Positions 9,307 through 62,718 of a stretch of 64,000 nt of DNA are shown in pieces. Position numbers and translations under genes: made by a program. The notes beneath the pieces were generated by a model, which worked only from the letters and a program-made list of their open reading frames with translations, searched no databases and was not told where the DNA came from. This DNA is from a virus: IMG/VR virus record IMGVR_UViG_3300031920_000309. One strand, written 5' to 3'. Numbering within the stretch: position 1 is the stretch's first letter; every line of letters starts with the position of its first letter.

Positions 9307-10021
9307 GCCTCCGGCGTTGAATAACTGAATCAGGCCGCTCCGGCGTTGAATAACTGACATCAGGCCGTGATGGCGATACTAATCGTACCCATGCACGAAC
9401 ATTGAGTTTCGCTCGACCGGTGAACTCTTTACTGATCCAACATGTAACCGTAGCCTGCTTGGTTTCGCCTGGTGCTACGCCCCAGAGGATTGTCTTGAAC
9501 GTTGGGTATGTCGCATCAGGACCACACAACTCATGCGGTTGAATGACGCCATACGATTGATCAGATATGCCAGACTCATATAATCGTGCAACGGGTTCAG
9601 CAAGACACCGACTTGTGTCCACCACGCCAGTTTTCGATAGCACGACAACAACCTCGAAATCGCCTGGTGCATCACCACAGTTTTTTACACTGAATTCGAA
9701 ATCGAATTTCCTGTCAATCTTGACCATGTCCGGCCGTTTGACCAACCGTGCTTCACATACGACCGGGGCGGGTATTTTTGTGGGCGATTCGATTTTGATA
9801 TCCGGAATATCGATCTCGTGTGCCTCCTGTCGGATACGGATCGACGGCATCGATATGCCAGTACGCTTGATTATCCCCTCGATCCGTTCCTTTATCACTT
9901 CGGGCGTAACTCTCGTACCAACCCTTTCAGGTTGCGATATGCTGTATCCACCCGGTCCTGGCACAGTCACACGACGTGTAATAACGCTCTTCAACTCATC
10001 TGGTATTTCCATATCAATCAC
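9287..10021 (-). CDS. Protein with CARDB/Ig-like domain
   Basis: FDFEFSVKNCGDAPGDFEVVV...VAPGETKQATV pattern. Confidence 0.65.
   Translation of the reverse strand: MIDMEIPDELKSVITRRVTVPGPGGYSISQPERVGTRVTPEVIKERIEGIIKRTGISMPSIRIRQEAHEIDIPDIKIESPTKIPAPVVCEARLVKRPDMVKIDRKFDFEFSVKNCGDAPGDFEVVVVLSKTGVVDTSRCLAEPVARLYESGISDQSYGVIQPHELCGPDATYPTFKTILWGVAPGETKQATVTCWISKEFTGRAKLNVRAWVRLVSPSRPDVSYSTPERPDSVIQRRRHDVDSD
9309..9367. repeat. 29/30-bp tandem duplication
   Basis: CTCCGGCGTTGAATAACTGAATCAGGCCG then CTCCGGCGTTGAATAACTGACATCAGGCCG. Confidence 0.95.
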
Positions 10022-10904
10022 CTCGTTTGTTCAGCAATATATGTATTCCTATCGTGCCGTGCAGTGTGTCAGGCGGCACGAACGAACACCACAGCATTTT
10101 GATTTCACCAGGCAGGATCTCGGTCGCATAATCAGGGATACCAGTAAACGTCCATTCGACATCGTTTTCATCCACCAGCCGTACCCCGATCCACCACCTC
10201 CCGCTTACTGTTCCGATGTTCTCAAACTCACCGCCAACCCAATTATCCTCCCCGATTTTAATGCTGTACGGAAGCTCGGTGTTACCAGTAAATCTAGCAC
10301 TTGCATCAACAGGCGGTTCAGGTTCTGGTGGTGGTTCTACCACAACATCACCGACATATTCTTCCCATTCTAACAACTCTTCCGCGGTCCATGGTGTAGC
10401 GAACCCGGTTGCGATGAGCAGTTCGTTGATGTTGTTATTATTCTCGTCATACACGATCCCAAGAATCCGGTCGTACGGATCTTGGCCTTTGTTCTCGAAC
10501 GAGATCTCGCTGCCAACCGGTAGCATCTCCTGTAGCCATTCGGTCGCCTCGATGCCACTTGGGTAATCATCCGACGGCCCCGACACATGCCAGAGCCGGA
10601 TTCTACGTGTCGTAAGCGGCGCGAGTTCACATACATTTCCGGGACAGACGAAGACGTCCAGTGTATCGGCATCGAGTATGCGATCAACAACCGCAGTCTG
10701 TAGAACAATCTCTATCGGAGGCGGCGTGGTCCCAACACAATATCCTGGATTGTTGTACAACCACTCGACATCCCACGACGCCAGGTCTGTTTCTTGGGTC
10801 AGATCGTCGTGTGCTGCTTCGAGAGCACTTCCCGATGTGATACACAGTCCTTCGTCACCATACCTGGTCGCGAGTTCATTCATTCGTGCGATTGCTATCG
10901 TCAT
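10014..10904 (-). CDS. Degenerate thermonuclease (SNase) domain fused to an Ig-like domain
   Basis: VDRILDADTLDV, RIRL, DPYDRILGIVY, NINELLIATG; C-terminal FENIG...ILPGE. Confidence 0.8.
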   Translation of the reverse strand: MTIAIARMNELATRYGDEGLCITSGSALEAAHDDLTQETDLASWDVEWLYNNPGYCVGTTPPPIEIVLQTAVVDRILDADTLDVFVCPGNVCELAPLTTRRIRLWHVSGPSDDYPSGIEATEWLQEMLPVGSEISFENKGQDPYDRILGIVYDENNNNINELLIATGFATPWTAEELLEWEEYVGDVVVEPPPEPEPPVDASARFTGNTELPYSIKIGEDNWVGGEFENIGTVSGRWWIGVRLVDENDVEWTFTGIPDYATEILPGEIKMLWCSFVPPDTLHGTIGIHILLNKRGD

Positions 10905-12763
10905 TCTGGCTCACCCCCGCTTGTCGGACACACGGTTCCAGCATTTATCATCTCATATGCCGCGGCATAGTCATCGATCGCCAGGTAGTACACAAACAAC
11001 GCATCGCTGAGAGTAACCGTCGCCGGGAACGTGCCGATGGCCGGATCGCACTTTTGGCCCATTCTGTCTGCCGCCTCGTGCCAGCGTTTGTACTTGAAAT
11101 ATACATACAAGAAGTGTTCGGTGGTCACGTTTTCAACCCCCCCAACATCATCGACAAACATGCAGATGTCCGGATCTTTCTCGTACAAAATCATCCGAAT
11201 ACTTGTCGTTTTACTGGCATATACCAACACGACTGTCGTTCTGGAATGATATCCAAACTTTGCGACCGTGATGGTATATTCACCAGCGGGTAATGGAATG
11301 ATGCCCGTGTCGGTATAACCAACAACCATGTCTTGGACAATAACCTCGGCCTCGATGCCGTCAGAGTATATGAACAAACCAGGAGTACCTGACGCATAAC
11401 TGCGATTGCCCGACGACGATCTACCGCCCCCTCCGCCGCCCCCCTCGCCACTGCTGTATGAGGTGGGGAGCTTTTGTATGTACGTGGGCTTCCCGTATGG
11501 GTCCTGTGTGGCACAGAACGTCTCCCATGCTCCGGGAGCTCCAGGGTCCCCAAACTCACCGTTCAAGAATCGCATATACAGTTCCCGGTTCAATTTGTGT
11601 GTGTATTCGTACTTACCGTCGTTTATTCGAATGGTCTCAACACCGTCGGCATATTGGCCATTGGGTCCTAACACTCGGCCAACTTCGAACACATACATGC
11701 TGTGAGATTTCCCGAGCCCGTCTGTCCATTCGACTTTGCGCTCGGCGACATTTATACGAGTAACATAATTGCCGGGAATAGAACAATACGTATCGTATGC
11801 ATCTGCATACCGGTTGGGCACGTTCCAGTCAGTGAAATCACCGGCACGGGCCATGAGATCGATCGCAGCTGCGGCTTTTTGTGGGTCTTCTTTGTACAAT
11901 TCCGCAAGCCAGTCATCCATCATCGGATACCCAGCCTCAAGATACCGAGCGCCGTACTCAGCATCGATTGTATCTGTGTCTGGGTCATACAATCGGCTGG
12001 GATCGAATGGTTCGTGCAACGAACTGTACTGATCGTATTCACTGATAATAAAGTCCCAGGCGTCATCGGAGAGTTTGCCGTCAGCGTGAAGTTGTAACGC
12101 GTTTTGCCACCCCTCTACATCATCTGCGTCTTTGACCAGTGTACTCCTAGCAACAAATTTTGTGTTTTTGTTCACGAGTAGCTGGTTTAGTATGGCAGAG
12201 TCTGTTGTGGGATCTTCGACTAGGCGTTTGGCCGTTATCTGTATTGCATTCTGGTTGTCCGAGAACAACAAAACCATATCGTCGACAGCGCCTGGAGCTG
12301 TTAGTTCTTTTTTGTTTATAATAGCGAACGTTTCGATATCAATCGACCCGTCGGACATGGTCAACGCATCTGCTACCATTTGTGCAGACTTGAAATCCCC
12401 GGCAAACTGAGCAAGAGAATCCGCGTTTGCGGCCGGATCTTCCGCCAACATGTTTATTGTGGTTTTTATTTTGTCCGGGTCATCTTCGTACAAACTGAAC
12501 AGCTCATCCACAAATCCAGGGGACCCTTCGTCTATGCCACACACATCTGCAAATCGGGCGGTATCAATCACACCGTCGGTCACCAACGCGCCACGAATCA
12601 CACCTTTAGTACTATAATCTGCATAAAAGTCATTCAAGACACTGGTATCAGTCGTTCGGTCGTTAACCAAGTTCGCAATCGTTTTTCTGTACATTTCAGT
12701 ATCTGATCCATCGCATATGGCCTCAATATCCGCTTGACAAATACACGCCATTATCAACACCAC
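10901..12763 (-). CDS. 620-aa acidic protein with helical repeats, Gly/Ser linker and PEGA domain
   Basis: DG.ID..F repeats; GEGGGGGGRSSS linker; LPAGEYTITVAKFGY PEGA signature. Confidence 0.8.
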   Translation of the reverse strand: MVLIMACICQADIEAICDGSDTEMYRKTIANLVNDRTTDTSVLNDFYADYSTKGVIRGALVTDGVIDTARFADVCGIDEGSPGFVDELFSLYEDDPDKIKTTINMLAEDPAANADSLAQFAGDFKSAQMVADALTMSDGSIDIETFAIINKKELTAPGAVDDMVLLFSDNQNAIQITAKRLVEDPTTDSAILNQLLVNKNTKFVARSTLVKDADDVEGWQNALQLHADGKLSDDAWDFIISEYDQYSSLHEPFDPSRLYDPDTDTIDAEYGARYLEAGYPMMDDWLAELYKEDPQKAAAAIDLMARAGDFTDWNVPNRYADAYDTYCSIPGNYVTRINVAERKVEWTDGLGKSHSMYVFEVGRVLGPNGQYADGVETIRINDGKYEYTHKLNRELYMRFLNGEFGDPGAPGAWETFCATQDPYGKPTYIQKLPTSYSSGEGGGGGGGRSSSGNRSYASGTPGLFIYSDGIEAEVIVQDMVVGYTDTGIIPLPAGEYTITVAKFGYHSRTTVVLVYASKTTSIRMILYEKDPDICMFVDDVGGVENVTTEHFLYVYFKYKRWHEAADRMGQKCDPAIGTFPATVTLSDALFVYYLAIDDYAAAYEMINAGTVCPTSGGEPE

Positions 12764-15700
12764 CCGTCCGAGTCAGCGACCAACGCATCCACGTCCAAAG
12801 ATCCATCCGAGTTTGTATAAGCGGCTCGGTATGTTTGTTGTTCTGTCCTTGACATAGTACCGAACGCATCACCGACAGACACTCCAGTCTCGTCCGACGT
12901 TTTCATCACATATGTTGATTCTTCCACAGCGGTATTTTCACCGCCACCGGCTCCACCACTGTCACTTGGCGCAGAAACGTGGTCTTTTGTCGAGATTCTG
13001 GTAGGAACTGTTATTCGGGTAGGGACTGCCCAGCCAATGTCAGCGGTTACCATGGATTCCAGCTTGTAACTACCGTCTGGCTGTTCAGCCAGGTGCCACA
13101 TCCCACCACGCAATGTATTTTTAATATATTCTTCGGCTTCTGGGAGTGTCATGCCGAACAAAGCAGCAACGTCTGCGATCATCGATGGCGTGACGTCTGC
13201 CATGTCAGTAACACTGGTCGGTTCAACGACACCAATTCCCACAGTCGGTACATGGACTGTCGGTCCACCTGGCAACTCACCACGGCTGTCAAGATCATCA
13301 ATGATTATACGGTATTTATTGTACAACACTGGACTATCGCGGATAGTCTCAAGCATTGCAACGATCGGAGACTCAAACCCAAGGATTTGGCTCATAACCG
13401 CCGTGTGTTCCGTCTGTGACCACATCCAATACAACACCGCGATACCTTCCTCGCCTGTGCCATATGGACAATTGATGAGCGCATCGGCCCAGGTTTCTGG
13501 GCGGTGGATGTTAATCTTCGACCCGTCGATGTTAAGGAACTCACCGACCACATTGGATGGGTTTTTGAGCAATGTGCTCGGAGATGCCAGCCAAATATTT
13601 CTTATCTCTTCTGTTGTCCTAACTCGGCCGTATCCATATTCGGTGGGACATTCGGACTGCGAACACCACCAACCACGGCTTTCCAGTGCGTCAAGCTTGT
13701 TGTCGATATAACCAGCGGCACTCTCGTTAAGGTACAACCCGAAATAATACCCAGGCGCGACCAGTGTTTTTGCGAGATCTCCTATGACGGGCACATCGAA
13801 TATCCTGCCCATCGTGGAATTCCACGAATCAAGCGCGAGTGCCCATTTGGGCAAGTGCTCAGCAAAGTGGAGTGCAGCGCGTTCTGGGTCTTCTTCCAGG
13901 GTGAACATCACGAACTGGAAGAGAGTCTGGAAGCCCTCCTCGAGACCAAACGCAGAGAATCCGACAGCCCCATTGATACCCGCCCAAGCCGAGACCGTGG
14001 TGGCAACCGGGTGTCGTCCAGCCCATGCTCTTATGCCCGTCAGCTGGTTAATAAATATCTCTGCGAGCAGTTTCTGGCCGACCACGTCGGATCGTCCCCA
14101 CAACTTGAGATATTCATCGAAGAACCTGGGGTCTCTCGGGAAACCGCCTTCGGTGATCACGCGGTTAATAACATTTTTGCCATGCCGATCAATCCTGTGC
14201 CAGAACGATTGGCCACGGGGACTTTCGATCATAAACGTGGTAGATTCTCTCACGTATGCTTTCCCGAACTTCACTGCTGGATCGACACCATATCGACGAC
14301 CCACGTGTTCGGAATAGCGAAATGCGTCGTCCGGTGAGAGTGTTCTGAAATATGCACGGACGTCGGGATCATTGAGACGAGATACCCACCGATCGCCAGC
14401 GGACACATTGCGAGTGCCACCACGAAGTGTCTTACTGGGTGTTTGCATGCGTATCAACTGTTTTTCCAAGAACAATCGCCGCTCGACGGAAATCGTTTTG
14501 TCTGCGAGTAGTTTTTCGAGTGCTTCGAACGGCTTATCTATTTCGTCCAGGAGTGATTTCCCTCTCGCAGCAGACCCACCAGTAGCCTCGAATGTTTCTT
14601 CTGCGGCTTCTTCCGCAGCATGGGTAACACGAACTTTGTTGTCCGCGCCTTTGACCGCCTCGTCTGCCTGTTTTATCAAGTTCGGGTCTCTGGACCGGAC
14701 GGAGTTGTCCAATTCTTCATATGCTTTTTGCTGGTCCAACTTGGCTTCTGCCTTTGAATTGGATGTTTCGTCGTACTGTTTTTTAGCAGCATCCGCATCA
14801 GCCTTGTTTGCACCCGTTTCCGCGTGCCGGGTCTCTTCTGCGTGTTTGCCAACGTCATCTGCTATTTCATCGACGTGTTGTTTCCCGACAACGATCATTT
14901 CGTCGAACATGTCTCTGGGTTTGTCGGCACGTTCCCAAACATTCGCATATCCATCTACCAGTGATTGTTTACGAGGAATTTCGCCGTTGGTTACCATGCG
15001 GTTTATGGTAGAAGCGTCTTGTGAACTGAGTCCACTTACCCATAGTTTCCCTTCTCGTGTACCTGCCAACCACTCGGCCGATGCTTTGACATACGCTTGT
15101 TCGGCTTTACGTGCGGTACTTGTTCCGTATCGTTGTTCGGTCATACGCACATATTCAGACGCATCTGTCGGGTGAAGCCGTGTGAAGAATGCCGTCGTGT
15201 CCGGTTGATACAGTCGCTGTTCCCATCTAGCAGAAAAATCAGTGCGACGCTGTAGATCCACCAAGACCTCGTCCCACGTACCAGAGTGTGTGCCAGGCAA
15301 AGGCTGATCAATGTTATGGAGGACGGTATCAAACACATCATCAATTGCAGCCAGTCGGCTGTTTCCGACATCCTGTCCCAGCCCGCTTGCAATTGTGATT
15401 CGGCGATCAGAGGCAGACACCGCATTACCGATCGCAGTGTTCATTCGCTTGCGTTCTATATCAATGGCATCAAAATCCCCGGTTTCAATGGATTTCGCAA
15501 ATTCGTCGTATGATTTTTGGAGTGTGTTTTTGGCCGTGCGTTCGGACGCTTCTGCATATGCCAAGCTTGCGGACGTAGGCGGGGTTTCTGTAGGAACACC
15601 CTTTACAATACATTCAACACTTTCGTCCATGAACGCAACTGGTTTTCCAACGGCCGTGCCCGGTGTAATCGTAACAGCGTCACCTGTTGCATGCTGGACG

Positions 15701-18700
15701 TCGATTATGGAACTGGCACGAGCAGCATCTGCACCAGTGATTTTTCCTTTTGCAGCATTGTAGTTGAACTGAGCCTTGAGTGCATCCGTACTAATATCAT
15801 CAGCCGCGTGTAGGATAGCAGCTTGTTCTACGTCGTCGGCTCCCTTTATGACGTCGTCAGCGGTTTTTGGCAACACGCGCCTTGTGCGTACGAATTTAGC
15901 AAGAGTGGAATAACTACCGGGGTATCCCTCCTTCTGAAGCAGATCGAATATTTTCCTGCTAGATGCAGCCGGATCAACCTCAAGCATGTCCACTACTCTG
16001 GATTCGAACGGGACGAGTACGCCAATCCGACTAACCGGGACAACCTCTTCCGCGATGACTTTGCTAGGCACGAACACTTCGGGTATGGTGACTTTTACCA
16101 CGCCTTCCGCGACAGCCACGTCAGGAATAGGACGTTCGGGCACTTTGCCGACACCAAGATCCGCCGCGAGTTCTTTGAGACGTTCTGTACGGGCGGCGAC
16201 GATTGGTTTAACATCCACATATTTCGGGTACAGCGTGAGTTCGGGAATGATGTCCCCGACCAAAAACTCCGGTTCCGGGACTGCCCTGATTCCTTCCAGT
16301 CCCTGCAACTCGGTGATCCGTTCTATAACAGCAGCGTTGATTGTGCCAAGTTGGTGAGCGTCGAACCCTTCTCGCCACGCAACCCCCATCAACGGCGGCA
16401 TTTCGGTCAATTCGAACACGTTGTTTTTGACAGTATTGCCAAGTTCGGTGGGTGACATTTTGATCATATCACCATGAGACACACCGCCAAGACCAAACGC
16501 ACGTTCGTACGCACGCCAAATCTCGTTGGCATGTGGGGCATTGACGCCGGGGAGAATACCAACAACCTCACCGACCGCATTATCTCCCATCCGCCCAACC
16601 AGATTGCGCATTTCAGCCGTTCCTTTCAATTCGTCGCCGCCGGTGGCATGCCAGAAATGGCTTCCGAAGTTACGACCACCGTTTTTGTTGTCCGACAACA
16701 CATTGTACATAGACTTTGGTGATACCTTACCAGCACCGACGGTTTCTTTGTTGACAATGATGTCGACATCCACCCTCCCAGTCGAAAGTATGTTCTCTCT
16801 GATCTTGGTTGCTTTGATTGTCTCGCGATATCCACTCCGGGCAGAACTGGGCAACTCCGTGTACAACGCAGCATTAATCATGGCACCGTCTTCGACAGTA
16901 TATGGAGTGCCGGAGAACACCTTCCGGAAAGCTGTCTGTTGGTCGGTGGTGAGATCCGGGAAGATATTGTCGACGAACGATTTCTGGAATACGCCAGAAC
17001 GGACATCTTGAATTGCTTGCGTACGGGAAGCATCAACACCAAGTTTGGGTACAACACCATCGGGCAGATCACCGATTTCCGCTGCATACCGAGTTGTGTG
17101 TGCATCAAATAATGCCGGTGTCATGGTATCAAGTTCTGCACCCGTTTTGCCACCGATCGTGAAACTTCGATCTTGTACATCACTAACAGTTCGCTTGAGG
17201 ATAGAATCGTCAATCATATCAACTGAATACCGGACCGTGTCCGGCCCCAGCTCGATCTGAGCACGACGAAGTTCTGCAAGCTGCTGGTCACCGGGTAATT
17301 TGATAAGTTCTTCCGCCCACGCATTCGCACCGTGCTTACCAGTTGGCAGATTATCGATCAGACTGATGCCGAGTTTGCCGACAGGTACCAGGTCATCACC
17401 AATTTGGATTGTTTTCATGACGACTTTCCCGCCCTTCGCAATCCACCCAACGGGAGTAACACCCGCAATGACAATACCAGCGTCTACCACACGATTGCCC
17501 GTGAGCCCGTCGGCGGCGGTCAAGAAATCAGCCACATGCAACAGGTAATCCCCTGTACGTTTGTTGTGCTCATCACCAGTCAACATACGTGGTCCGATAT
17601 TTTCTTGGTATTGTTCCGGAATCTGTTCATAACTAGCGCCAGATTCTACTCTGGTGAGCAACGACAATTGTTCGTCGGTGTTGTCTGTAAACAATAAAGA
17701 CTGCTCTGCTTGGTTGTAATCAGTGATGATGGTATCACCATCCGCGAACTTGTGGAGTTCGGAATTCTTCCACACACCCCCATCCGCAGTGAGTTCGACA
17801 GTCGCTACATTGGGATCATACGAAACAATCCCGCGATCACTGAGAGACCTTGCTTGTTCACCGAAGTTGTCACCATGTTTAGCAATACCGGCATTGATGA
17901 GGGCAATGTTGGCAACATCATCGGTATCAGGATCTATACGAGCCCCACGGAAGAAATCCGGATTCTCTTCGAGCACTTGCACGACATGCTCAGGCGGGAC
18001 GTATTTTGCCCACACCTTGAACGCATCACGTGAAGGCAATGAACCAACGCGGGTCAGATCGTCCAGTGTCGCACCTGGTACCGATGCTTCTTTTGTCCAC
18101 GCTGATAACTGCTGCGAACCAGAATCGGTAGGAGTATATACGGTAATGGGTTTCTGGAACACGTCATTGATATACGCTTTTTCGTCGTCGGTCTCTGCCA
18201 TACCAAGCGACGAATATTTGAACATCGTACGCAATATCGGAGTTTCGGTCAAAACTCGCTCGGCAAAACCAGACGGACCTTCTGACACCGCGTATGTTGG
18301 TTGTACCACCGTCTTGTCCAGTATTCCAGCATCGGTACCAGATTCTTCCGCAGGAATGACAAGACCAGCACCAAAACGAGCAACGTCACCAAGTGTTTCA
18401 CCGACGTATGGAACACGCTCGGCACTAGTGACCAAACGCTCGGCAAACGTCGGAGGATCTGCCACACCAGGGCTTTGTGTAATAACAAGTGTGTCCGGTG
18501 TTACGATTTCGTTTGTAATTGCTTGGCGATCGTCCTTACCAATCCCCAGAAATCCAAGTGTGGCAGAATACCCAATCCTGACTCGATCAAGCAAGCTTTT
18601 TTCTGGCAGTTTTTCTACTTCGGGACGTATGACTGTTTCAGGCGTTTCGCCCCGCATTTGGAATAATTCTTCTTCTGTAGGGTGAGGAGGCAACTCGATC

Positions 18701-21399
18701 TCGGCAAACATTTCTGGTCCGTACAATTTTCCAGTTTCGTGAAGATACGTCCGCTCGTCATAATATCCAGTCTCCTCCGGATACCATGGAACTTCTTCGC
18801 CTTTGGTCAGTGGTGTAATACGCAGCACGGGCTCATACGACACGGGGTTATCGGATTGTGGTTCGTATAACACGTACGCGGTATCTTTTATGAGTTTGGT
18901 TTGGTTTGCAGCCGCGGCAATATCAGTTAATGGAACCAATCGGTTGTCTGTAGAATACGCACCGTAAACACGCGCAGCTTCTTCTCCGCTGACAGACGTA
19001 CCATCGGGGTTGAAAAATTCAGGGGGTGGGTTTACAGCATAATACACATCACCAACTTTCAAAACCACAACAGCATGACCACCGCCCCCTGGGGCATCTA
19101 CTACAGCTGCATATACATCACCGAACCCATCTCGCGTGGCATTAGTAACAAGATCCGCAGCAAATTGCCGACATTCGTGCCTATCCTCGGGATATGTTAA
19201 ATGTGGGTCGTTCATGGCTGTATACGCACTAATATATGGACGTTTGTCGGTCGGATCTTGTGCCAACCACGATTCGAACTCAGTGATCTTTTCTTGTTGA
19301 GCAATGGTAGGAGTTTCCCATATCAACGACATACCTGGCTCAACAACAGAAACCCATCTACCACTACGCATATCATATACATGTCCTGGGCCGGTTGCTG
19401 CTGGATCATCGCTCACCCCTCGGATAACAACATGCGCGATTGGATCATATTCGTCACCAGTGACATTTTTGTATGCACCCGAAAATGCACCGTCGACATC
19501 TTGGGCGGAGAGAACATCGGCAGCTTCGCCGGATTTGAGCAATTCGCCAAAAGCATCGGCAGAATGTACCCGACCGGTTTTTTCGTTGTAGATGTTCCGG
19601 AGATTTTCAACGTTCTCTCGTTGTAATGTTTGGTATTCGGGATGCGATAATCCCATGTCGGTGGCGATTTGTTTGGCTTTCTCGGTGTCAGCTTCGTCTA
19701 GATCGGTTTGGATCGAAGTGACCACGCGTTCGCTGATGGGAACTAGTCTGGCACGTTTGTCTGCCGCGCTTTGGTGTTTTCTAAGATAGCTCACAGGTTC
19801 AGCCAACGTTGGATCAAGTTGTGCTATCTCGTTGTCTGTATAATACAACAAATTACCATCGTCGTCACGTGCCGTGTTACGGATCCTATCTGCATAATCA
19901 AGATCACCAGAATCTGGGTTTATAACGAACACATCACGACCAAGGTTGCGATCTTTGTTGTAATTGATTTTGTCATCGAATCCTGTCCACCCCGTCCCAT
20001 GATAACCATATGAACCAACACGACTCAAGTACTCTGCTTCACTGGCCGCAACCTCCGCAGACAGGTCTTCTTTGGTGCCCTCCGTTGCATATACATTGTG
20101 TCGGTGGCGAATGTCATCGTCTGGGCGATGTGCCAACCCCTTTACAATTACCCGGTCACCAGGATTTGCATCCGACTCGAATATGCCCAGCGCTCTGTCT
20201 GGATCATACCATTCGGATTTTTCTGACTCGGAAAGCAAGTTGTAGTCCCACTCTGGAATCAGCGCGCCTTCCTCGTTATGGTAATACGTAAACTCACGAA
20301 CACCAGGAGACGTCATGAATCGTTTTTCTGCTCGGGCGATCTGTGCGGCAGACACGCCAGCAGCTCGGAGTTGTTCAACTTCTATCATACTCGGTACGTA
20401 CGGCTCCGCTTCGACAGTAATATCTGCCAACCGAGCAGCCATCTCAATATCGTTTTCATCGAGGCTTTGTACGAAATCACCGACATGGTCTTGTATACCA
20501 CCAAATGCGGTTGATGTCCGAAGAACATACTCATCGCCTACCATGCGATCGTTTGCAAGATGGTCGGTGAGTGCCTTCTGGTTTTCTTGTGATACGACAT
20601 CAAAAAACCTATTCACATCAAACATAGTAGCATCAACAATGTCTTGTGAAGTGGCATGGGCACCGACTATCGCATCCATGAAATCGGACATCCGTGCGAT
20701 GTAACTGTCTGCATCAGCATGAGTTCCGAGATCATTGATGTATTGACTGGCAATCGTACCGAGATCTATAATGCCCGTGGTTGCGTTGCGTACAAGCTGA
20801 TCTTTTGTGGTAGTCGCATTCGTCTGAACCGCGTCTCGCAGAGAATCTGCGACCGTGTTTTTCTGGGCGAACAATGCTCCAAGTACCCCAGATCGTCGTT
20901 CGAGTTCTGTTTCTATCGACGATTTTGTGTCGTGTTCGATCTTGGCGAGATCTTCCAACTGCGAACGCATTCGTATACTACCATCTTCAACAACAAACGG
21001 AGCAAGCACATCGATCGCACCGAGCCGTCGATCGGACTCGGCCCTAATAAAGTCAGTGGCAACATCAGATCCCATCGTAACGCCATGTACGTATTCCATG
21101 TCGACGTTGTCGTATATCGGAGAAATGTCACGGGCGGGGGTTTGACCAACCGCTCGCATTGCAAGATCTTCGTTCACGCTGGTTACTCTATCAAGATCCC
21201 GTTGTCGCTGCTCGGCACCACCATAAAACAAAAGATTTTTCTCTGCTTGTGACATGCCAACGGACGGAACAACGGGGGCCGGTTCGTAATATGGTTCAGG
21301 TTCATAAACATCAATGGTCTCAGCTCGATGTTGGTCCAACCCGACTTCGTCTATTCGGTCTTGCCAATCACCCTCGAAGAAAGCATCGAGAAATCCCAT
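12754..21399 (-). CDS. Giant 2881-aa multidomain protein, probably virion-associated, with a papain/transglutaminase-like motif
   Basis: 8.6-kb uninterrupted ORF; HECRQFA...GHAVVV...YAVNP motif; hydrophobic segments; internal duplication. Confidence 0.85.
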   Translation of the reverse strand: MGFLDAFFEGDWQDRIDEVGLDQHRAETIDVYEPEPYYEPAPVVPSVGMSQAEKNLLFYGGAEQRQRDLDRVTSVNEDLAMRAVGQTPARDISPIYDNVDMEYVHGVTMGSDVATDFIRAESDRRLGAIDVLAPFVVEDGSIRMRSQLEDLAKIEHDTKSSIETELERRSGVLGALFAQKNTVADSLRDAVQTNATTTKDQLVRNATTGIIDLGTIASQYINDLGTHADADSYIARMSDFMDAIVGAHATSQDIVDATMFDVNRFFDVVSQENQKALTDHLANDRMVGDEYVLRTSTAFGGIQDHVGDFVQSLDENDIEMAARLADITVEAEPYVPSMIEVEQLRAAGVSAAQIARAEKRFMTSPGVREFTYYHNEEGALIPEWDYNLLSESEKSEWYDPDRALGIFESDANPGDRVIVKGLAHRPDDDIRHRHNVYATEGTKEDLSAEVAASEAEYLSRVGSYGYHGTGWTGFDDKINYNKDRNLGRDVFVINPDSGDLDYADRIRNTARDDDGNLLYYTDNEIAQLDPTLAEPVSYLRKHQSAADKRARLVPISERVVTSIQTDLDEADTEKAKQIATDMGLSHPEYQTLQRENVENLRNIYNEKTGRVHSADAFGELLKSGEAADVLSAQDVDGAFSGAYKNVTGDEYDPIAHVVIRGVSDDPAATGPGHVYDMRSGRWVSVVEPGMSLIWETPTIAQQEKITEFESWLAQDPTDKRPYISAYTAMNDPHLTYPEDRHECRQFAADLVTNATRDGFGDVYAAVVDAPGGGGHAVVVLKVGDVYYAVNPPPEFFNPDGTSVSGEEAARVYGAYSTDNRLVPLTDIAAAANQTKLIKDTAYVLYEPQSDNPVSYEPVLRITPLTKGEEVPWYPEETGYYDERTYLHETGKLYGPEMFAEIELPPHPTEEELFQMRGETPETVIRPEVEKLPEKSLLDRVRIGYSATLGFLGIGKDDRQAITNEIVTPDTLVITQSPGVADPPTFAERLVTSAERVPYVGETLGDVARFGAGLVIPAEESGTDAGILDKTVVQPTYAVSEGPSGFAERVLTETPILRTMFKYSSLGMAETDDEKAYINDVFQKPITVYTPTDSGSQQLSAWTKEASVPGATLDDLTRVGSLPSRDAFKVWAKYVPPEHVVQVLEENPDFFRGARIDPDTDDVANIALINAGIAKHGDNFGEQARSLSDRGIVSYDPNVATVELTADGGVWKNSELHKFADGDTIITDYNQAEQSLLFTDNTDEQLSLLTRVESGASYEQIPEQYQENIGPRMLTGDEHNKRTGDYLLHVADFLTAADGLTGNRVVDAGIVIAGVTPVGWIAKGGKVVMKTIQIGDDLVPVGKLGISLIDNLPTGKHGANAWAEELIKLPGDQQLAELRRAQIELGPDTVRYSVDMIDDSILKRTVSDVQDRSFTIGGKTGAELDTMTPALFDAHTTRYAAEIGDLPDGVVPKLGVDASRTQAIQDVRSGVFQKSFVDNIFPDLTTDQQTAFRKVFSGTPYTVEDGAMINAALYTELPSSARSGYRETIKATKIRENILSTGRVDVDIIVNKETVGAGKVSPKSMYNVLSDNKNGGRNFGSHFWHATGGDELKGTAEMRNLVGRMGDNAVGEVVGILPGVNAPHANEIWRAYERAFGLGGVSHGDMIKMSPTELGNTVKNNVFELTEMPPLMGVAWREGFDAHQLGTINAAVIERITELQGLEGIRAVPEPEFLVGDIIPELTLYPKYVDVKPIVAARTERLKELAADLGVGKVPERPIPDVAVAEGVVKVTIPEVFVPSKVIAEEVVPVSRIGVLVPFESRVVDMLEVDPAASSRKIFDLLQKEGYPGSYSTLAKFVRTRRVLPKTADDVIKGADDVEQAAILHAADDISTDALKAQFNYNAAKGKITGADAARASSIIDVQHATGDAVTITPGTAVGKPVAFMDESVECIVKGVPTETPPTSASLAYAEASERTAKNTLQKSYDEFAKSIETGDFDAIDIERKRMNTAIGNAVSASDRRITIASGLGQDVGNSRLAAIDDVFDTVLHNIDQPLPGTHSGTWDEVLVDLQRRTDFSARWEQRLYQPDTTAFFTRLHPTDASEYVRMTEQRYGTSTARKAEQAYVKASAEWLAGTREGKLWVSGLSSQDASTINRMVTNGEIPRKQSLVDGYANVWERADKPRDMFDEMIVVGKQHVDEIADDVGKHAEETRHAETGANKADADAAKKQYDETSNSKAEAKLDQQKAYEELDNSVRSRDPNLIKQADEAVKGADNKVRVTHAAEEAAEETFEATGGSAARGKSLLDEIDKPFEALEKLLADKTISVERRLFLEKQLIRMQTPSKTLRGGTRNVSAGDRWVSRLNDPDVRAYFRTLSPDDAFRYSEHVGRRYGVDPAVKFGKAYVRESTTFMIESPRGQSFWHRIDRHGKNVINRVITEGGFPRDPRFFDEYLKLWGRSDVVGQKLLAEIFINQLTGIRAWAGRHPVATTVSAWAGINGAVGFSAFGLEEGFQTLFQFVMFTLEEDPERAALHFAEHLPKWALALDSWNSTMGRIFDVPVIGDLAKTLVAPGYYFGLYLNESAAGYIDNKLDALESRGWWCSQSECPTEYGYGRVRTTEEIRNIWLASPSTLLKNPSNVVGEFLNIDGSKINIHRPETWADALINCPYGTGEEGIAVLYWMWSQTEHTAVMSQILGFESPIVAMLETIRDSPVLYNKYRIIIDDLDSRGELPGGPTVHVPTVGIGVVEPTSVTDMADVTPSMIADVAALFGMTLPEAEEYIKNTLRGGMWHLAEQPDGSYKLESMVTADIGWAVPTRITVPTRISTKDHVSAPSDSGGAGGGENTAVEESTYVMKTSDETGVSVGDAFGTMSRTEQQTYRAAYTNSDGSLDVDALVADSDGWC

Positions 21400-21400
21400 A

Positions 21401-21517
21401 TCACTGCCTCATGGCTTCTATCTTGCGAATAGCTTCTGCTTTCAGTCTGTCAATCTCCTTCTTCGCTTCCGACCTAACTTCTTCAATTGTATTTGTATTT
21501 TCGAACACCAAGATCAC
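21401..21517 (-). CDS. 38-aa coiled-coil peptide preceding the giant gene
   Basis: MILVFENTNTIEEVRSEAKKEIDRLKAEAIRKIEAMRQ; stop 2 nt before the giant ATG. Confidence 0.5.
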   Translation of the reverse strand: MILVFENTNTIEEVRSEAKKEIDRLKAEAIRKIEAMRQ

Positions 21518-25950: not shown

Positions 25951-26298
25951 ATGTTAAACAGGATAACAAGATGGCTGGCAGACAGAAAGGAACGAGCAAC
26001 ACCCGGAGTCCTTAACTCTCAATCAATGAGCGAACACCGGAAGAGAATGGATCGTATTTACGCGTTGCTTATGAAATCGCGGACGCGTGACGAACTGGCC
26101 GAACTCATCGAATTAGACAAGGGAGAGGAAAAGTATTACGTAGCCCGATTCCAGTGCTTGCGAGACGCAGTTGGGGGTAACTACGAACACGCATCAAAAA
26201 AAGACATGCGGTGTTTGGACATACTCGACACCTTGATATGTGCAACACGGCGATGCATAATACTCAACGAGGACGATTTACACGAGTTAAAAGTGTAA
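25951..26298 (+). CDS. Hypothetical protein
   Basis: GAGGTG RBS; ORF in operon. Confidence 0.6.
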   Translation: MLNRITRWLADRKERATPGVLNSQSMSEHRKRMDRIYALLMKSRTRDELAELIELDKGEEKYYVARFQCLRDAVGGNYEHASKKDMRCLDILDTLICATRRCIILNEDDLHELKV

Positions 26299-26799
26299 TT
26301 CCCTAAGAACATACCCATCACGTGGCCAACGAAGAAGATGATGTTTGGCATCTTCGCCAACTCGCTGTGGTTCGGCCACAACTATTTTTAGTTCGTCGTC
26401 GTCCTTGACAATGGCGACGTTTATTGCGTGGGCACCTGTCAAATATGGCACTGCGTCCATCGTTGCATATGCGAATGCGCCAGTGGGATACTTTTTTCGT
26501 ACAGCGCAGAACAACCGCCTGGCAGCATCATCACAATCCTGTCGATTGGCTATCCAGTTCCTGGCTGGCAACGACTCGGCAACTTTGATGATCTGCAATT
26601 TTGTGAGCGGATCAAGGGTGACGTCAGGCCAAGACGCACGCATACACCATTTCGTATTTCGTTTGGACTTGATCTTAAACGCGTCAGAAACCAACTGCCA
26701 TGCAACACTTGCCGTGATGTCGCGGGCACGGACGACGTTCCGTTTCCGTTTAAGCAAAAGCATTTTAACGGAGGTGATGAGAAACTGTCTATTCCACAT
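26287..26799 (-). CDS. Papain/transglutaminase-fold cysteine peptidase-like protein
   Basis: DCDDAA...GAHAINV...AEPQ (Cys-His-Glu arrangement). Confidence 0.7.
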   Translation of the reverse strand: MWNRQFLITSVKMLLLKRKRNVVRARDITASVAWQLVSDAFKIKSKRNTKWCMRASWPDVTLDPLTKLQIIKVAESLPARNWIANRQDCDDAARRLFCAVRKKYPTGAFAYATMDAVPYLTGAHAINVAIVKDDDELKIVVAEPQRVGEDAKHHLLRWPRDGYVLRELHF

Positions 26800-27502
26800 A
26801 GCAACCTTCACCAGTCTCATCCACATCGAACACGGCAGCATCAACATCATCCTCTAACCATACTGGCCAGGTACCTTCTCCGATCAGCCCACACGCAAGC
26901 CAGTCGTCATTGTCCCCTCCGGCGGGAGGAGCCATCCCGTACACGGATGCAATGTAATCAAAACCACCATCAGCGAACGTCATGGTATAATCAGTCGGGT
27001 GGCGGCCGTCAGCGACCCGTATAGACGCACTGAGGTTGCCACTGCCTCGCATACCAATGTCAGTGTAGAATGCCACAGAATCGCTTTCTATGAAGTTTTC
27101 AGTCTTTATATTCTTCAGACCACAGACATCCACAGAATGCCGTACCCCAACAACAGGATGGATCGCCGTAATCGCGTATCGGTTGCGACGCTGGGTCGCG
27201 CCGTCCAGTTCGTAATAGGTAGACAACGCAGTTCCGCCCTCGTCATCAACTTCGAGTTCGCGCATATAAGACTGGACCCCAACACCGGACGCATAGTCAC
27301 TGGCTTGTGGCAATGTTGACATCGTCAACAGAGTTCCTGTACCATTGATTTCGACAGATTCTGATACCTGAATACCATGCGCCACGCCCGCAAACAGGTA
27401 TCCAACACAGACCACCGTTATGACCACGGCAGTCAGAAATACGGCGGTCCTGCATACACCATTCATTCTAAATATCATATCACCAAAACCGTTCATTATC
27501 AC
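26789..27502 (-). CDS. Secreted or membrane-anchored beta-rich protein
   Basis: N-terminal hydrophobic segment AVFLTAVVITVVCVGYLFAGVAHG. Confidence 0.7.
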   Translation of the reverse strand: MIMNGFGDMIFRMNGVCRTAVFLTAVVITVVCVGYLFAGVAHGIQVSESVEINGTGTLLTMSTLPQASDYASGVGVQSYMRELEVDDEGGTALSTYYELDGATQRRNRYAITAIHPVVGVRHSVDVCGLKNIKTENFIESDSVAFYTDIGMRGSGNLSASIRVADGRHPTDYTMTFADGGFDYIASVYGMAPPAGGDNDDWLACGLIGEGTWPVWLEDDVDAAVFDVDETGEGCYVE

Positions 27503-30094: not shown

Positions 30095-30424
30095 TTAATA
30101 CGTTCCTAATAACGGGGGTGGATATGCATGTGCATTTGGTAGTGGGATTGCCCCACATGACGCCAATAACACCAATTCCGCAATACACGCATCAGCACCC
30201 ACGCGGTCGGCCACACGATCAGTAACAATATGAAGCCAAGCCGACCACGCGGCATAAATACCACCAACCTGGCACATATACGCGACGGCATCGTCGTTGT
30301 GGAACCATTGCCTGTGGTTCGGACCGATTGCTTTTGCGTATATATCCAGTATTCGGTGGACACCAGGATATTGTACACCAATAAACATCAAGTCGACGTT
30401 CAGATGAAACCCGTGGCTCGGCAC
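30095..30424 (-). CDS. His-rich putative metal-binding protein
   Basis: GGAGG RBS; MPSHGFH...VHRILD...NHRQWFHND...LHIVTD. Confidence 0.6.
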   Translation of the reverse strand: MPSHGFHLNVDLMFIGVQYPGVHRILDIYAKAIGPNHRQWFHNDDAVAYMCQVGGIYAAWSAWLHIVTDRVADRVGADACIAELVLLASCGAIPLPNAHAYPPPLLGTY

Positions 30425-31185
30425 GACCACCCCTCCACACCGAAGTTTATTTCTGGGTTCATGGCCCAATGGTTATACAACAAACTGAACCAGTGCCATC
30501 TGTTGTGGTTCGTCTTTGTGTGGCAATTCGTGCACAGCGGTAGCAAGTTCCAATCCGCCGTTGTGCATCCTTGCATCTTGTTGTAATCGGTGTGGTGTAC
30601 ACAATGTTTTTTACCGTTCTCTTCCGCACCACACAAATAACATTTTCTATCATGCAGTTCTCGAATCTCCTCTTTCTTTGCTTCATTAAACTTGAAACAA
30701 TACGGTGCGAACGAAACACCGCCCCGCCAACCGGGGTTCTTCCCCCCCCGTTTTGCCTCGCTTAGGTTTTGTCTGGTTTCATCCGAAACATATTTATTTC
30801 TGTGAGCGTTGCCTATTTTTTGTTTGGTTTCTTCTGAAAGATGTCTTCCTTTACGCAATTCGCTTAGTTTCTTTCTGGTTTCTTCGGAAGGATGCTTGCC
30901 TCGTTTTGCTTCGCTTATTTTCTGCCGAGTTTCTTCCGAACGATGTTTACCATAATTGAGATTTTTGTTTCCTCTCTGCGCATCACTCATTTTTCGTTTG
31001 GTTTCCGCTGAATGGTATCTCCCTCTGCTTGTTTCGCTGATCGTTCGCGCACAAACACCAAACGCGTGTAGCCAGTTACGTATCGTCGTCCTGCTACAGT
31101 CAGCAAGCTTTGCAATCTCACGTGGTGACAATTCTTCAATGTCGTGTTTCTCTCGCATCCACGCTTCATTTTTGTATAGCATCAT
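30400..31185 (-). CDS. Free-standing HNH homing endonuclease with HTH and NUMOD3 repeats
   Basis: HSAETKRKMSDAQRG-type repeats; CYLCG...HCVHHTDYNK...LCTNCHTKTN. Confidence 0.92.
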   Translation of the reverse strand: MMLYKNEAWMREKHDIEELSPREIAKLADCSRTTIRNWLHAFGVCARTISETSRGRYHSAETKRKMSDAQRGNKNLNYGKHRSEETRQKISEAKRGKHPSEETRKKLSELRKGRHLSEETKQKIGNAHRNKYVSDETRQNLSEAKRGGKNPGWRGGVSFAPYCFKFNEAKKEEIRELHDRKCYLCGAEENGKKHCVHHTDYNKMQGCTTADWNLLPLCTNCHTKTNHNRWHWFSLLYNHWAMNPEINFGVEGWSCRATGFI

Positions 31186-31385
31186 TTCTCCTGAATTCGT
31201 TTTGCCATCGCAAGCAGGGCATCCAACCCATACTTCGTGATGCTGTACGTGCTGTTCGTACGGATATGTTCGTGGAGGAGCAACCAATCCCCAAACCGCT
31301 CCAGTTCCTTTGCTTCTTCTGTCGATATCAGGCAACACATACTGAACCGATTTTTCCCTCTCGGAGCAAAACTTTTCCATGGCAT
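31182..31385 (-). CDS. Small RHH-like protein
   Basis: RFSMCCLISTEEAKELE...SITKYGLDALL; ATGA-coupled to the HNH gene. Confidence 0.5.
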   Translation of the reverse strand: MPWKSFAPRGKNRFSMCCLISTEEAKELERFGDWLLLHEHIRTNSTYSITKYGLDALLAMAKRIQEK

Positions 31386-31476
31386 TGCACATCACCTCCA
31401 CATCGTGTCTTCATTTGCATGTACTACATGTAACACGGCAAAGATATATATATGTTTCCGATAAACAGACACAAAC

Positions 31477-50187: not shown

Positions 50188-51198
50188 ATGGTTTTCATGG
50201 GAATTTCCAGTATCCGGGTCGAGATATCAGAGCTGAGTGTATCGAAATCGGGGTGGACAACGTTGTTCGTCGATAAAAATTTCGCTGCTGCATCAGACGA
50301 CAACGATGGGTACTCTTGGTCAAGGCCAAAGAAAACGATTGGTGGTGCTCTTGCGGACGCAAAATCATGGTGTAAAATTTATGTAAATAGTGGACAATAT
50401 GAAGAAAACATCACAATTTCATACGAACATGTACAAATAATCGGTGTCGCAAAAGACGGTCCGGACATTGTCAACCTAAAATCAAGCATAGGAACACCAT
50501 TAACAATAACGGCTGGCTTCTGTGAGCTACAGACCTTAGCTGTAGAAGCTATAGATCAGCACGGAATCCAGGTTACTGCGCCAGGACACATATTAAATGA
50601 CGTAGTGGTAGCTATCACAAACACAACCGGTGTCGCCAGGATAGGGATATGGCTTAACGATTCGGACAGCACTGAAATTAAGAACTGCCATATAGACGGA
50701 AACGGCGACGACGAGGTGATCGGTATACTTGTTGGCGATGATACAGTTGGTGCGGAAGTCACGGAAAACTATATCACAGGATGTGGAGATGGGATTGGTG
50801 TGGGATGTGGAGCGGGAGGAGCTTGTACAGCAAACGGATATGCGATCGGAATTGCGGAATCAGCACAACGATGTATAATCAGCGACAACGAAATAATAAC
50901 TAATTGTGTGGGAGTTTACTTTTACAAGGTCGGAGCTGATGCGTTCAAGGGACATGCTGTCTTGCACAACGCATTCTGGGAAAATTGCTCATACGACGTG
51001 TTTGATTTATATGCTCCAGAAATAAGCGCAATTGCAATAAGAGAAAATTATTATGGTTACAGCGGCTGGTTCGTGGATTCCAACAACGACGGGCGGGCCG
51101 ACATCATCGTAGACTGTAACACAAACAAAGACCACGCACCCCTATTCAATCCCCAGACCTGGCGGACGGAAGCTATTTCTAGAGCGGGGTACATATGA
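50188..51198 (+). CDS. Right-handed beta-helix (pectin-lyase/NosD-like) protein
   Basis: PKKTIGGAL, G.Y.ENI start; periodic IKNCHI, VTENYI, ISDNEI, VLHNAF repeats. Confidence 0.85.
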   Translation: MVFMGISSIRVEISELSVSKSGWTTLFVDKNFAAASDDNDGYSWSRPKKTIGGALADAKSWCKIYVNSGQYEENITISYEHVQIIGVAKDGPDIVNLKSSIGTPLTITAGFCELQTLAVEAIDQHGIQVTAPGHILNDVVVAITNTTGVARIGIWLNDSDSTEIKNCHIDGNGDDEVIGILVGDDTVGAEVTENYITGCGDGIGVGCGAGGACTANGYAIGIAESAQRCIISDNEIITNCVGVYFYKVGADAFKGHAVLHNAFWENCSYDVFDLYAPEISAIAIRENYYGYSGWFVDSNNDGRADIIVDCNTNKDHAPLFNPQTWRTEAISRAGYI

Positions 51199-52076
51199 AG
51201 GGCATGGACCCGAGTGTGACATACAAAAACTACGATTGGATGTACCAAAAATACATTGTCGAAGAACTGTCCACACCAAAAATAGCAGACGTTGTGGGGT
51301 GTGGGAGCACAACTGTTTTTAGGTGGCTAAGAAAACTGGGAATCCGCCCCCGCTCTCGCAGCGAAGCTTGTCGTGGGAATAAAAACCACAACCACGGCAC
51401 AACGTTGTCAGAAAACACGCGGAAGAAAATTGGTGACGCACAACGTGGTAAACTTGTTTCAAATAAAACCCGGATGAAGATGAGCAAGGCACAAACGGGC
51501 AGGATACAATCGGAAAAGACTCGCAATAAAATCAGCGATGCTAAACGTGGTAAACCGTTGCCAGAAAAAACCCGACAAAAAATGAGCAAGGCACGCCAGG
51601 GACCAAAAAACCCAAATTATGGTAAACATCATTCGCCAGAAGCACGTCAGAAAATGGGTGATGCTGAGCGAGGCGAGAAACACCACTATTACGGCAAGAC
51701 GTTCACAGCCGAACACCGGAAGAAAATTGGTGACGCACAACGTGGTAAGAAAGGATCTAATTGGCACGGAGGCATTTCGTTCGAACCATACTGCCCAGCA
51801 TTCAACAAATCCAAGAAAGAAGAAATAAGAGAATCACACGGCAGGAAATGTTTCTTGTGTGGTGCTGGTGAGAACGGTAGAAAACATGCAGTCCATCATA
51901 CGGATTACAACAAGATGCAAGGATGTGACACAGAAGATTGGAATCTAATACCATTATGCAATCAATGCCACTCGAAGACAAACTTCAATCGATGGTACTG
52001 GTTCAGTCTTCTGTATAGTAACTGGGTTATGAACCCAGACATAAATTTCAACACGGCGGTGATAACACAATGGTGA
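51195..52076 (+). CDS. Free-standing HNH homing endonuclease with HTH and NUMOD3 repeats; paralog of 30400-31185
   Basis: LSENTRKKIGDAQRG repeats; CFLCG...HAVHHTDYNK...LCNQCHSKTN. Confidence 0.92.
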   Translation: MKGMDPSVTYKNYDWMYQKYIVEELSTPKIADVVGCGSTTVFRWLRKLGIRPRSRSEACRGNKNHNHGTTLSENTRKKIGDAQRGKLVSNKTRMKMSKAQTGRIQSEKTRNKISDAKRGKPLPEKTRQKMSKARQGPKNPNYGKHHSPEARQKMGDAERGEKHHYYGKTFTAEHRKKIGDAQRGKKGSNWHGGISFEPYCPAFNKSKKEEIRESHGRKCFLCGAGENGRKHAVHHTDYNKMQGCDTEDWNLIPLCNQCHSKTNFNRWYWFSLLYSNWVMNPDINFNTAVITQW

Positions 52077-62297: not shown

Positions 62298-62696
62298 ATG
62301 AATGTTAAAATTATTGGCACAGACGAAGCTGTCGAACACGCAAGGGCACGGTTGAACGAGGACTGGATGGTTATTGTGGGCGACCTCAACATCATAGAAC
62401 ATCTGGAAAATGTGGTGTACACACCAGGGACGAACGACAACGCGGATTTTGAGGTTATTGGTATAATGCCAATCATATTTCTGGGAAAAAAAACGAAGCG
62501 ACTGGACGACGCACTGCAAAACCAGCCGGTGTTTGACACCACCCTGGCATTGTTGGTAAAACCCGACGAAATGTTACTGATGAATTACGACAAAAACGAG
62601 GTGTCGGTAGAAAAGGCCGCGGATGACATCGTAAAACTTGTCAGAATATCATTTGAATCCGGGGTGCTGTTCCCTGGGTTGTTGTTTGACGAGTGA
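62298..62696 (+). CDS. Hypothetical protein
   Basis: GGTGA RBS. Confidence 0.7.
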   Translation: MNVKIIGTDEAVEHARARLNEDWMVIVGDLNIIEHLENVVYTPGTNDNADFEVIGIMPIIFLGKKTKRLDDALQNQPVFDTTLALLVKPDEMLLMNYDKNEVSVEKAADDIVKLVRISFESGVLFPGLLFDE

Positions 62697-62718
62697 TGCC
62701 ACAGACGAGTTGTATGGC

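Follow-up and report, generated by a model that had tools for sequence, protein, structure and literature searches.

Results

A Giant Gene in a Conserved Virus Operon

We analyzed a window of 64,000 nucleotides from virus record IMGVR_UViG_3300031920_000309. The window belongs to a ~73-kb virus-like contig, part of which was also assembled from SRR1971621, the metagenome of the Haakon Mosby Mud Volcano (PMC9012536). The minus strand carries at 12754-21399 a single uninterrupted ORF with an ATG start, which encodes, as the sequence-only reading of this DNA had claimed, a protein of 2881 amino acids (hereafter P0001) and makes up ~12% of the virus genome. Reading along the operon, TATA-like boxes are followed by a 35-aa ORF, the giant gene, and genes for a 616-620-aa PEGA-domain protein, a 296-aa SNase-like protein and a 241-aa protein; the operon and an SNase-PEGA gene are transcribed divergently. 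The position of the giant gene and the gene order were kept in three other metagenomic contigs (L002/L007, L005 and L006), and the arrangement of SNase-PEGA gene, 31-36-aa ORF and giant gene was kept in four independent contigs. Note that the 620-aa PEGA protein encoded downstream of the giant gene (10901-12763, minus strand) contains seven consecutive glycines and numerous cysteines, and P0001 is Cys-poor.

The 35-aa ORF upstream of the giant gene (21401-21508, minus strand) was found in every related contig with 77-80% identity, so that it is better conserved than the N-terminus of the giant protein itself. The TATA-like boxes lie upstream of this ORF, and its stop codon is separated from the start of the giant gene by 1 nt. 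Its counterparts in the relatives, of 31-36 aa, are located at L002:15244-15339, L003:9410-9520, L005:4300-4407 and L006 ~9313-9423. The product is predicted to form a single amphipathic helix with the core ...EVR.EAK.EIDRLKAEAIRKIEAMR, and it could be a partner, chaperone or regulator of the giant protein. Exact look-ups of this small ORF yielded no new contigs.

Elsewhere, the window encodes a DEAD-box helicase, sugar-pathway genes, an Mtd-like fibre gene, a beta-helix protein and homing endonucleases. Genes of the homing-endonuclease type are present at 30400-31401 (minus strand) and 51195-52076 (plus strand), one of the NUMOD3/HTH and one of the HNH kind, the HNH gene being inserted in the fibre/structural gene block. 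At the left end of the window, an ArdA antirestriction protein is encoded at 99-701 on the plus strand (Pfam E 9e-40), indicating that the virus invests in anti-defence functions. At the other end, 62638-63999 (continued in L008:10968-12686) corresponds to a 572-aa Walker A protein matching PF27228 (MTBMA_p00010_2nd, named for a Methanothermobacter plasmid gene); it is probably the replication protein and gives a hint at the host lineage. In two related contigs, a short ORF with a fragment of NRDD (anaerobic ribonucleotide reductase) stands beside a 180-aa gene (L003:5524-5883 and L004:4130-4477). The window has no NRDD fragment there, showing that gene content varies among the relatives. Terminase, portal and packaging ATPase genes were not seen in the 64-kb window of the ~73-kb contig, and neither were genes for an HK97 capsid, tail tube, sheath or chaperone pair in the same 64 kb; the other available contigs end close to the edges of the window.

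Relatives of P0001 Are Reached by Synteny

Homologues of P0001 were reached through a neighbouring 187-aa gene, whose 68-84% identical relatives lie on contigs that carry a syntenic giant gene. Two of these homologues cover the Cys-His-Asn motif described below, namely P0011 (2547 aa, cut at the contig end; L007:1-7641, minus strand) and P0010 (977 aa, also cut; L005:4409-7339). A JGI scan with alignment A1 recovered one further N-terminal fragment of 473 aa on L006, and the same scan with alignment A2 recovered no relative. Protein-level searches returned little else: a word-indexed protein search at near and shorter lengths found the query only, as did an exhaustive phmmer search of P0001 residues 1-1200 against 1.84 billion representatives. 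Moreover, tblastn of P0001 against the INPHARED phages gave no match, IMG/VR scans with P0001, with alignments A1 and A2 and with neighbouring genes gave no relatives, and no relative of the giant protein was found in GTDB genomes. The cut homologues appear to be missing from both large protein libraries. The empty protein searches are thus probably explained by giant genes being cut at contig ends, with such products absent from the libraries. For giant genes, an empty protein search is not proof that relatives do not exist, and synteny through a small neighbouring gene is needed to find them. The P0001 family is confined to a few uncultured archaeal-type viruses from methane-seep and marine sediments.

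The comparison of P0001 with P0011 gave dN/dS values of 0.09-0.36, with dS saturated and dN low in the conserved parts. The low dN at saturated dS indicates that the entire P0001 frame is coding and constrained; it is a real gene under purifying selection.

The Giant Protein Has a Mosaic Architecture

P0001 is acidic along its entire length and has six cysteines, at positions 743, 1930, 2579, 2584, 2644 and 2881. Residues 1-350 (20350-21399, minus strand, as for all the following features) form a variable N-terminal module with ~65% identity to P0010 and ~20% to P0011, and this part looks like a swapped module in the three-way comparison. Module 2 (residues 351-650; 19450-20349) shows the reverse pattern, with ~65% identity to P0011 and an unrelated sequence in P0010. 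The core discussed in the next section is followed by a central conserved region (residues 935-1760; 16120-18597), which is 60-75% identical to P0011; this level extends over residues 935-1900, a part outside the coverage of P0010. Near the C-terminus lies a conserved Trp/Cys-rich domain (residues ~2570-2790; 13030-13692), in which Cys2579, Cys2584 and Cys2644 are conserved, and residues 2601-2700 form the best-conserved stretch of the protein (82-84% identity to P0011). By these patterns, the giant protein is a mosaic with module swapping between relatives.

Internal repeats had been claimed for this protein, and self-BLAST located a duplication. Residues 2051-2159 matched residues 2330-2438 with 33% identity (E 2e-18), and the match stretches to ~1952-2159 versus 2215-2438. 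Repeat unit A (residues ~1952-2159; 14923-15546) is absent in P0011, and repeat unit B (residues ~2215-2438; 14086-14757) is kept. The P0011 gap opposite P0001 residues 1936-2169 corresponds to one copy of the duplicated unit, so that the duplication produces a length difference of ~230 aa between relatives. Shorter repeats were observed near the N-termini of the relatives. The P0011-type N-terminus (L007:1-7641, minus strand; L006:9428-9500) begins with Pro/Ser-rich tandem repeats of SFKFSTPPAT and APSPSY units, and since the N-terminal module of P0001 differs from it, the virus group has two alternative N-terminal cassettes. Residues ~330-420 of P0010 (L005:4409-7339) contain two tandem copies of a ~30-aa unit, EAEPYVPS...AGVSEAQIARAE, which occurs once in P0001 and is not found in P0011.

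Of the hydrophobic segments noted in the sequence-only reading, two are present and Gly-rich, but their hydrophobicity is only moderate (Kyte-Doolittle 1.1-1.5 for residues 1299-1328 and 2465-2486). The first (17416-17505), inside the central conserved region, was modelled by AlphaFold as a beta-hairpin and not as a membrane helix. The second (13942-14007) scored 1.12 in P0001 and 1.6 in its P0011 counterpart.

Family searches gave almost no matches. Pfam, PHROGs and NCBIfam searches with full-length P0001 and with eight pieces of it returned noise only, except for an IS21 helix-turn-helix (HTH). Residues 1-350 had Tape_meas_lam_C as their sole family match, at a non-significant E of 0.14, and module 2 had no family match in the profile search. 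No Pfam, PHROGs or PDB match was obtained for the central region (935-1760), and no ESM-atlas or PDB match for the C-terminal Trp/Cys-rich domain; PDB sequence and profile searches with the core, central and C-terminal regions were empty except for a coiled-coil artefact. We also considered several enzymatic activities and rejected them. For a virion RNA polymerase, P0001 lacks a D-x-D-G-D-type motif and has a single DPDTD only; the P-loop-like GSAARGKS is not conserved in P0011; and for a zincin there is a single HFAEH with nothing else in support.

A Conserved Cys-His-Asn Core

The sequence-only reading had pointed to an HECRQFA/GHAVVVL/YAVNP motif at ~19030-19190 as part of a cysteine-peptidase-like core. 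We mapped the motif to nt 19030-19173, with Cys743 of HECRQFA at 19171-19173, His775 of GGGGHAVVV at 19075-19077 and Asn790 of YAVNP at 19030-19032; the spacing is Cys, 32 residues to His and 15 to Asn. The core containing this triad spans residues ~730-865 (18805-19212). In the three sequences that cover the core, Cys743, His775, Asn790 and Pro791 are invariant in all three, as are Asp749, Thr755, Gly758, Gly783, Tyr787, Val789 and Pro847-Gln848 (n = 3). The most distant pair, P0001 and P0010, is identical at 21 of 115 positions (18%) in the core. Furthermore, Cys743 is the sole cysteine in the first ~1900 residues of P0001, its counterpart is the sole cysteine in the first ~2300 residues of P0011, and in P0010 the core cysteine is one of two. 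Invariance against an 18% background, together with a nearly unique cysteine, is strong evidence that this residue is functional.

We then modelled the core with AlphaFold, using a single sequence for residues 640-900 and the three-sequence alignment for residues 705-1900. Both are low-confidence models (mean pLDDT 34.5 and 37.3, respectively, and 34-55 (~50) in the core), and both show a helix starting at the Cys, a strand, a strand starting at the His and a strand ending before the Asn. The papain-like core is defined by a helix that has the Cys at its N-terminus and packs against an antiparallel sheet, with the His and a polar residue located on strands 2 and 3 of that sheet (PMC10318531). 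The predicted secondary-structure order of the core is papain-like in these models. Conservation of the Cys and His in homologues, proposed earlier as a check on a catalytic site, was thus observed and includes the Asn, and the residues take papain-like positions in models with pLDDT of 34-55.

The conserved catalytic-type residues speak for the peptidase-like core that had been claimed, but no known peptidase family could be assigned to it by sequence, profile or fold. Searches of the core against Pfam, NCBIfam and PHROGs retrieved no peptidase family, phmmer and profile searches of the PDB produced no match with E<=10, and a Foldseek search of the PDB with the core model was not significant. 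Fold searches with these weak models, including VIA-align with the small model, stayed at noise level; the longest alignments across the core were to papain-fold enzymes, which we regard as a hint only. The weak fold matches of the core were NAT, TGase and 3c9q, the last of which we take to be Ntaq1. The pattern C-x-x-[FYI]-[AS] ... G ... H-[AS] ... [YL]-x-V-N-P presumably recalls the transglutaminase-core motif, and ESM-atlas features for the core led to small viral clusters, some with PF18022; both are leads only. In comparison with the papain-like and transglutaminase-like enzymes (SCOP d.3; PeiP/PeiW of C71 and bacterial transglutaminase-like peptidases), the P0001 core has the Cys-His-Asn order in common, with the Cys predicted at a helix N-terminus and the His and Asn on successive strands. 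It differs in that transglutaminase-like enzymes have Asp as the third residue where the core has Asn, and in that the core is embedded in a 2881-aa protein, unlike the SCOP d.3 enzymes named. We consider it fairly probable that the core is a papain-like or transglutaminase-like thiol enzyme, and keep the assignment as putative. If the site is active, the core would define a new family of thiol enzymes, encoded by viruses of uncultured seep archaea.

Membership in Peptidase C71 was rejected (hhalign 0.14% for the core versus PeiP, and no pseudomurein-binding repeats in Pfam). The core had also been likened to a peptidase gene at 26287. This likeness holds at the motif level but did not extend to the alignments (BLASTP E 0.19, hhalign 0.5%), and kinship with the 187-aa gene at 26287-26850 was rejected; the hhalign comparison aligned only the 'EPQ' region.

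An IS21-Type Helix-Turn-Helix Domain

Residues 1791-1846 (15862-16029) form an HTH domain like HTH-2 of IS21 IstA, supported by both profile and structural matches. Specifically, the NCBIfam IS21 transposase model matched P0001 residues 1792-1842 with E 2.9e-4 and P0011 residues 1763-1818 with E 7.4e-5; in both proteins the match spans positions 45-103 of the profile (length 294) and scores 20-22 bits, the cut-off being 160. P0001 also matched HTH-2 of IstA (PDB 8b4h, IstA residues 55-104) by sequence-profile and structural comparison over ~56 residues. HTH-2 of IstA recognizes the terminal repeats via the major groove (PMC10122671). Neither HTH-1, the DDE catalytic domain nor the beta-barrel of IS21 was found in P0001, and we rejected P0001 as a whole IS21 transposase given that the match is limited to positions 45-103 of the 294-position profile. 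By this sequence evidence the domain is best described as a putative borrowed DNA-binding domain and not a transposase, and the HTH-2 match suggests that P0001 very probably binds DNA. This HTH was absent from the sequence-only reading, and it points to a role on DNA, beyond the envelope alone.

Discussion

Given that P0001 is large, acidic, clade-restricted and module-swapping, that it combines an HTH with a probable thiol enzyme, and that its operon encodes surface-type and nuclease proteins, the evidence points to its travelling along with the genome and acting early in infection. We therefore weighed a virion-delivered, DNA-binding giant protein with a thiol peptidase module, to which we give a tentative preference at slightly below even confidence, against three other explanations. 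That P0001 acts inside the cell as a non-virion scaffold for replication or host takeover, with a Cys-His-Asn site that is structural or non-proteolytic (transglutaminase-type, amidase or acyl-transfer), is a serious contender, though on balance unlikely. Papain-fold enzymes do include transglutaminases, acyltransferases and amidases (PMC10318531), and the weak fold matches of the core are enzymes of this kind (NAT, TGase, 3c9q). An HTH would suit a DNA role inside the cell, and the giant gene stands among replication-type genes, namely the helicase and a weak O-like replication protein. However, an acidic, module-swapping protein that takes up 12% of the genome and is encoded in a PEGA/nuclease operon is more like virion or injected proteins than like replication factors. 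The same HTH is what an envelope-cutting enzyme would leave unexplained. Under that explanation, which follows the sequence-only reading, P0001 would be a vertex or internal virion protein whose thiol peptidase cuts the S-layer or pseudomurein and whose hydrophobic segments open the membrane, in parallel with the peptidase or lysozyme domains of T5 Pb2 and T7 gp16. The conserved Cys-His-Asn core, the two conserved hydrophobic segments and the flanking genes with PEGA surface-type domains and secreted-type nucleases are consistent with it. So are the use of the Cys-His-Asp enzymes PeiP and PeiW on pseudomurein by methanogen viruses (PMC2989375, PMC4592898) and the match of the replication protein at the window end to a Methanothermobacter plasmid family. 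On the other hand, the core is dissimilar to PeiP (hhalign 0.14%), family searches revealed no pseudomurein- or S-layer-binding repeats, and the hydrophobic segments are weak, one of them being modelled as a beta-hairpin. We thus regard envelope cutting as improbable.

A tail tape measure had been dismissed earlier on the grounds that a tailless virus would have no use for one. This exclusion is invalid: large double-jelly-roll viruses use capsid tape-measure proteins. P0001 could in principle serve a tailed archaeal virus as a tail tape measure with an enzyme domain built in, and the duplication would then alter tail length. The large size, helical stretches, Gly-rich hydrophobic segments and the duplication-based length difference of ~230 aa would all suit such a protein, and further points in its favour are the Mtd-like fibre gene, the beta-helix protein and the weak Tape_meas_lam_C match (E 0.14). 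However, this match is below threshold, and the neighbours of the giant gene are the 35-aa ORF, PEGA and SNase genes. The fibre genes are ~25 kb away from the giant gene and on the other strand, and within the 64-kb window we saw neither terminase and portal genes nor those for an HK97 capsid, tail tube, sheath or chaperone pair. In the model, moreover, P0001 is multi-domain, with beta regions and the HTH, and not one long helix. Together, these observations make a tail tape measure very unlikely.

For the virion-delivered protein that we favour, the following course may be proposed. P0001 would be packaged in the virion and enter the cell with the genome, as a protein of the pilot or 'polyvalent' type, and the IS21-type HTH would hold it on the DNA. 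The Cys743-His775-Asn790 module, acting as a papain-like or transglutaminase-like thiol enzyme, might then process P0001 into functional fragments or, upon entry, cleave proteins of the host. The N-terminal modules, which swap fast, could meet variable host factors, e.g., defence or entry components.

The polyvalent proteins of phages and conjugative elements offer one comparison. Like P0001, they are very large and multi-domain; they are thought to be delivered with the DNA, and many of them contain a peptidase that has been proposed to process the polypeptide (PMC5512222). They differ in carrying methylases, helicases, ARTs and a zincin-like MPTase, none of which was detected in P0001, and in that their peptidase is a zincin whereas the candidate in P0001 is of the thiol type. 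P0001 was rejected as a polyvalent protein by domain definition, with one recognizable domain (HTH) and a candidate peptidase only.

The closest precedent, by role and not by sequence, is VP1 of the halosphaeroviruses SH1, PH1 and HHIV-2. This virion protein is likewise giant and acidic, has a predicted HTH, and shows replaced blocks at its N- and C-termini (PMC3622292). A recent study reported that VP1 inhibits type V BREX and that particles form without it (bioRxiv 10.64898/2026.04.28.721311). VP1 and P0001 are each the product of the largest gene of their virus (1390-~1650 aa and one-sixth of the genome for VP1, versus 12% for P0001). They also share a strongly acidic composition, an HTH prediction, block replacement between relatives at the N-terminus and near the C-terminus, and the lack of homologues outside their clade. 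Differences are also clear: P0001 is twice as long, and VP1 has no reported Cys-His-Asn core. Furthermore, VP1 is a virion protein of tailless viruses with an internal membrane, whereas P0001 is a putative virion protein. Homology of P0001 to SH1 VP1 (ORF13) was rejected (hhalign 0.08%; no tblastn match in the phage collection that includes SH1). By analogy, P0001 might represent a new class of giant virion-borne proteins of archaeal viruses, brought in on the genome by a transposase-derived DNA-binding domain and cut into effectors by its own thiol peptidase, with the fast-swapping N-terminal modules disarming host defences. It would then be an independently evolved functional counterpart, in viruses of methane-seep archaea, of the anti-BREX VP1 of HHIV-2, although we think this rather unlikely.

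By sequence, the P0001 family is new; its kind, giant multi-domain proteins that are borne by viruses and contain an enzyme, is known. Giant proteins without assigned functions occupy much of some archaeal virus genomes, and VP1 of HHIV-2/SH1 is the only one for which a role has recently been found. P0001 provides a second example, unrelated to VP1, with two handles on its function: the Cys-His-Asn site and the predicted DNA-binding HTH.
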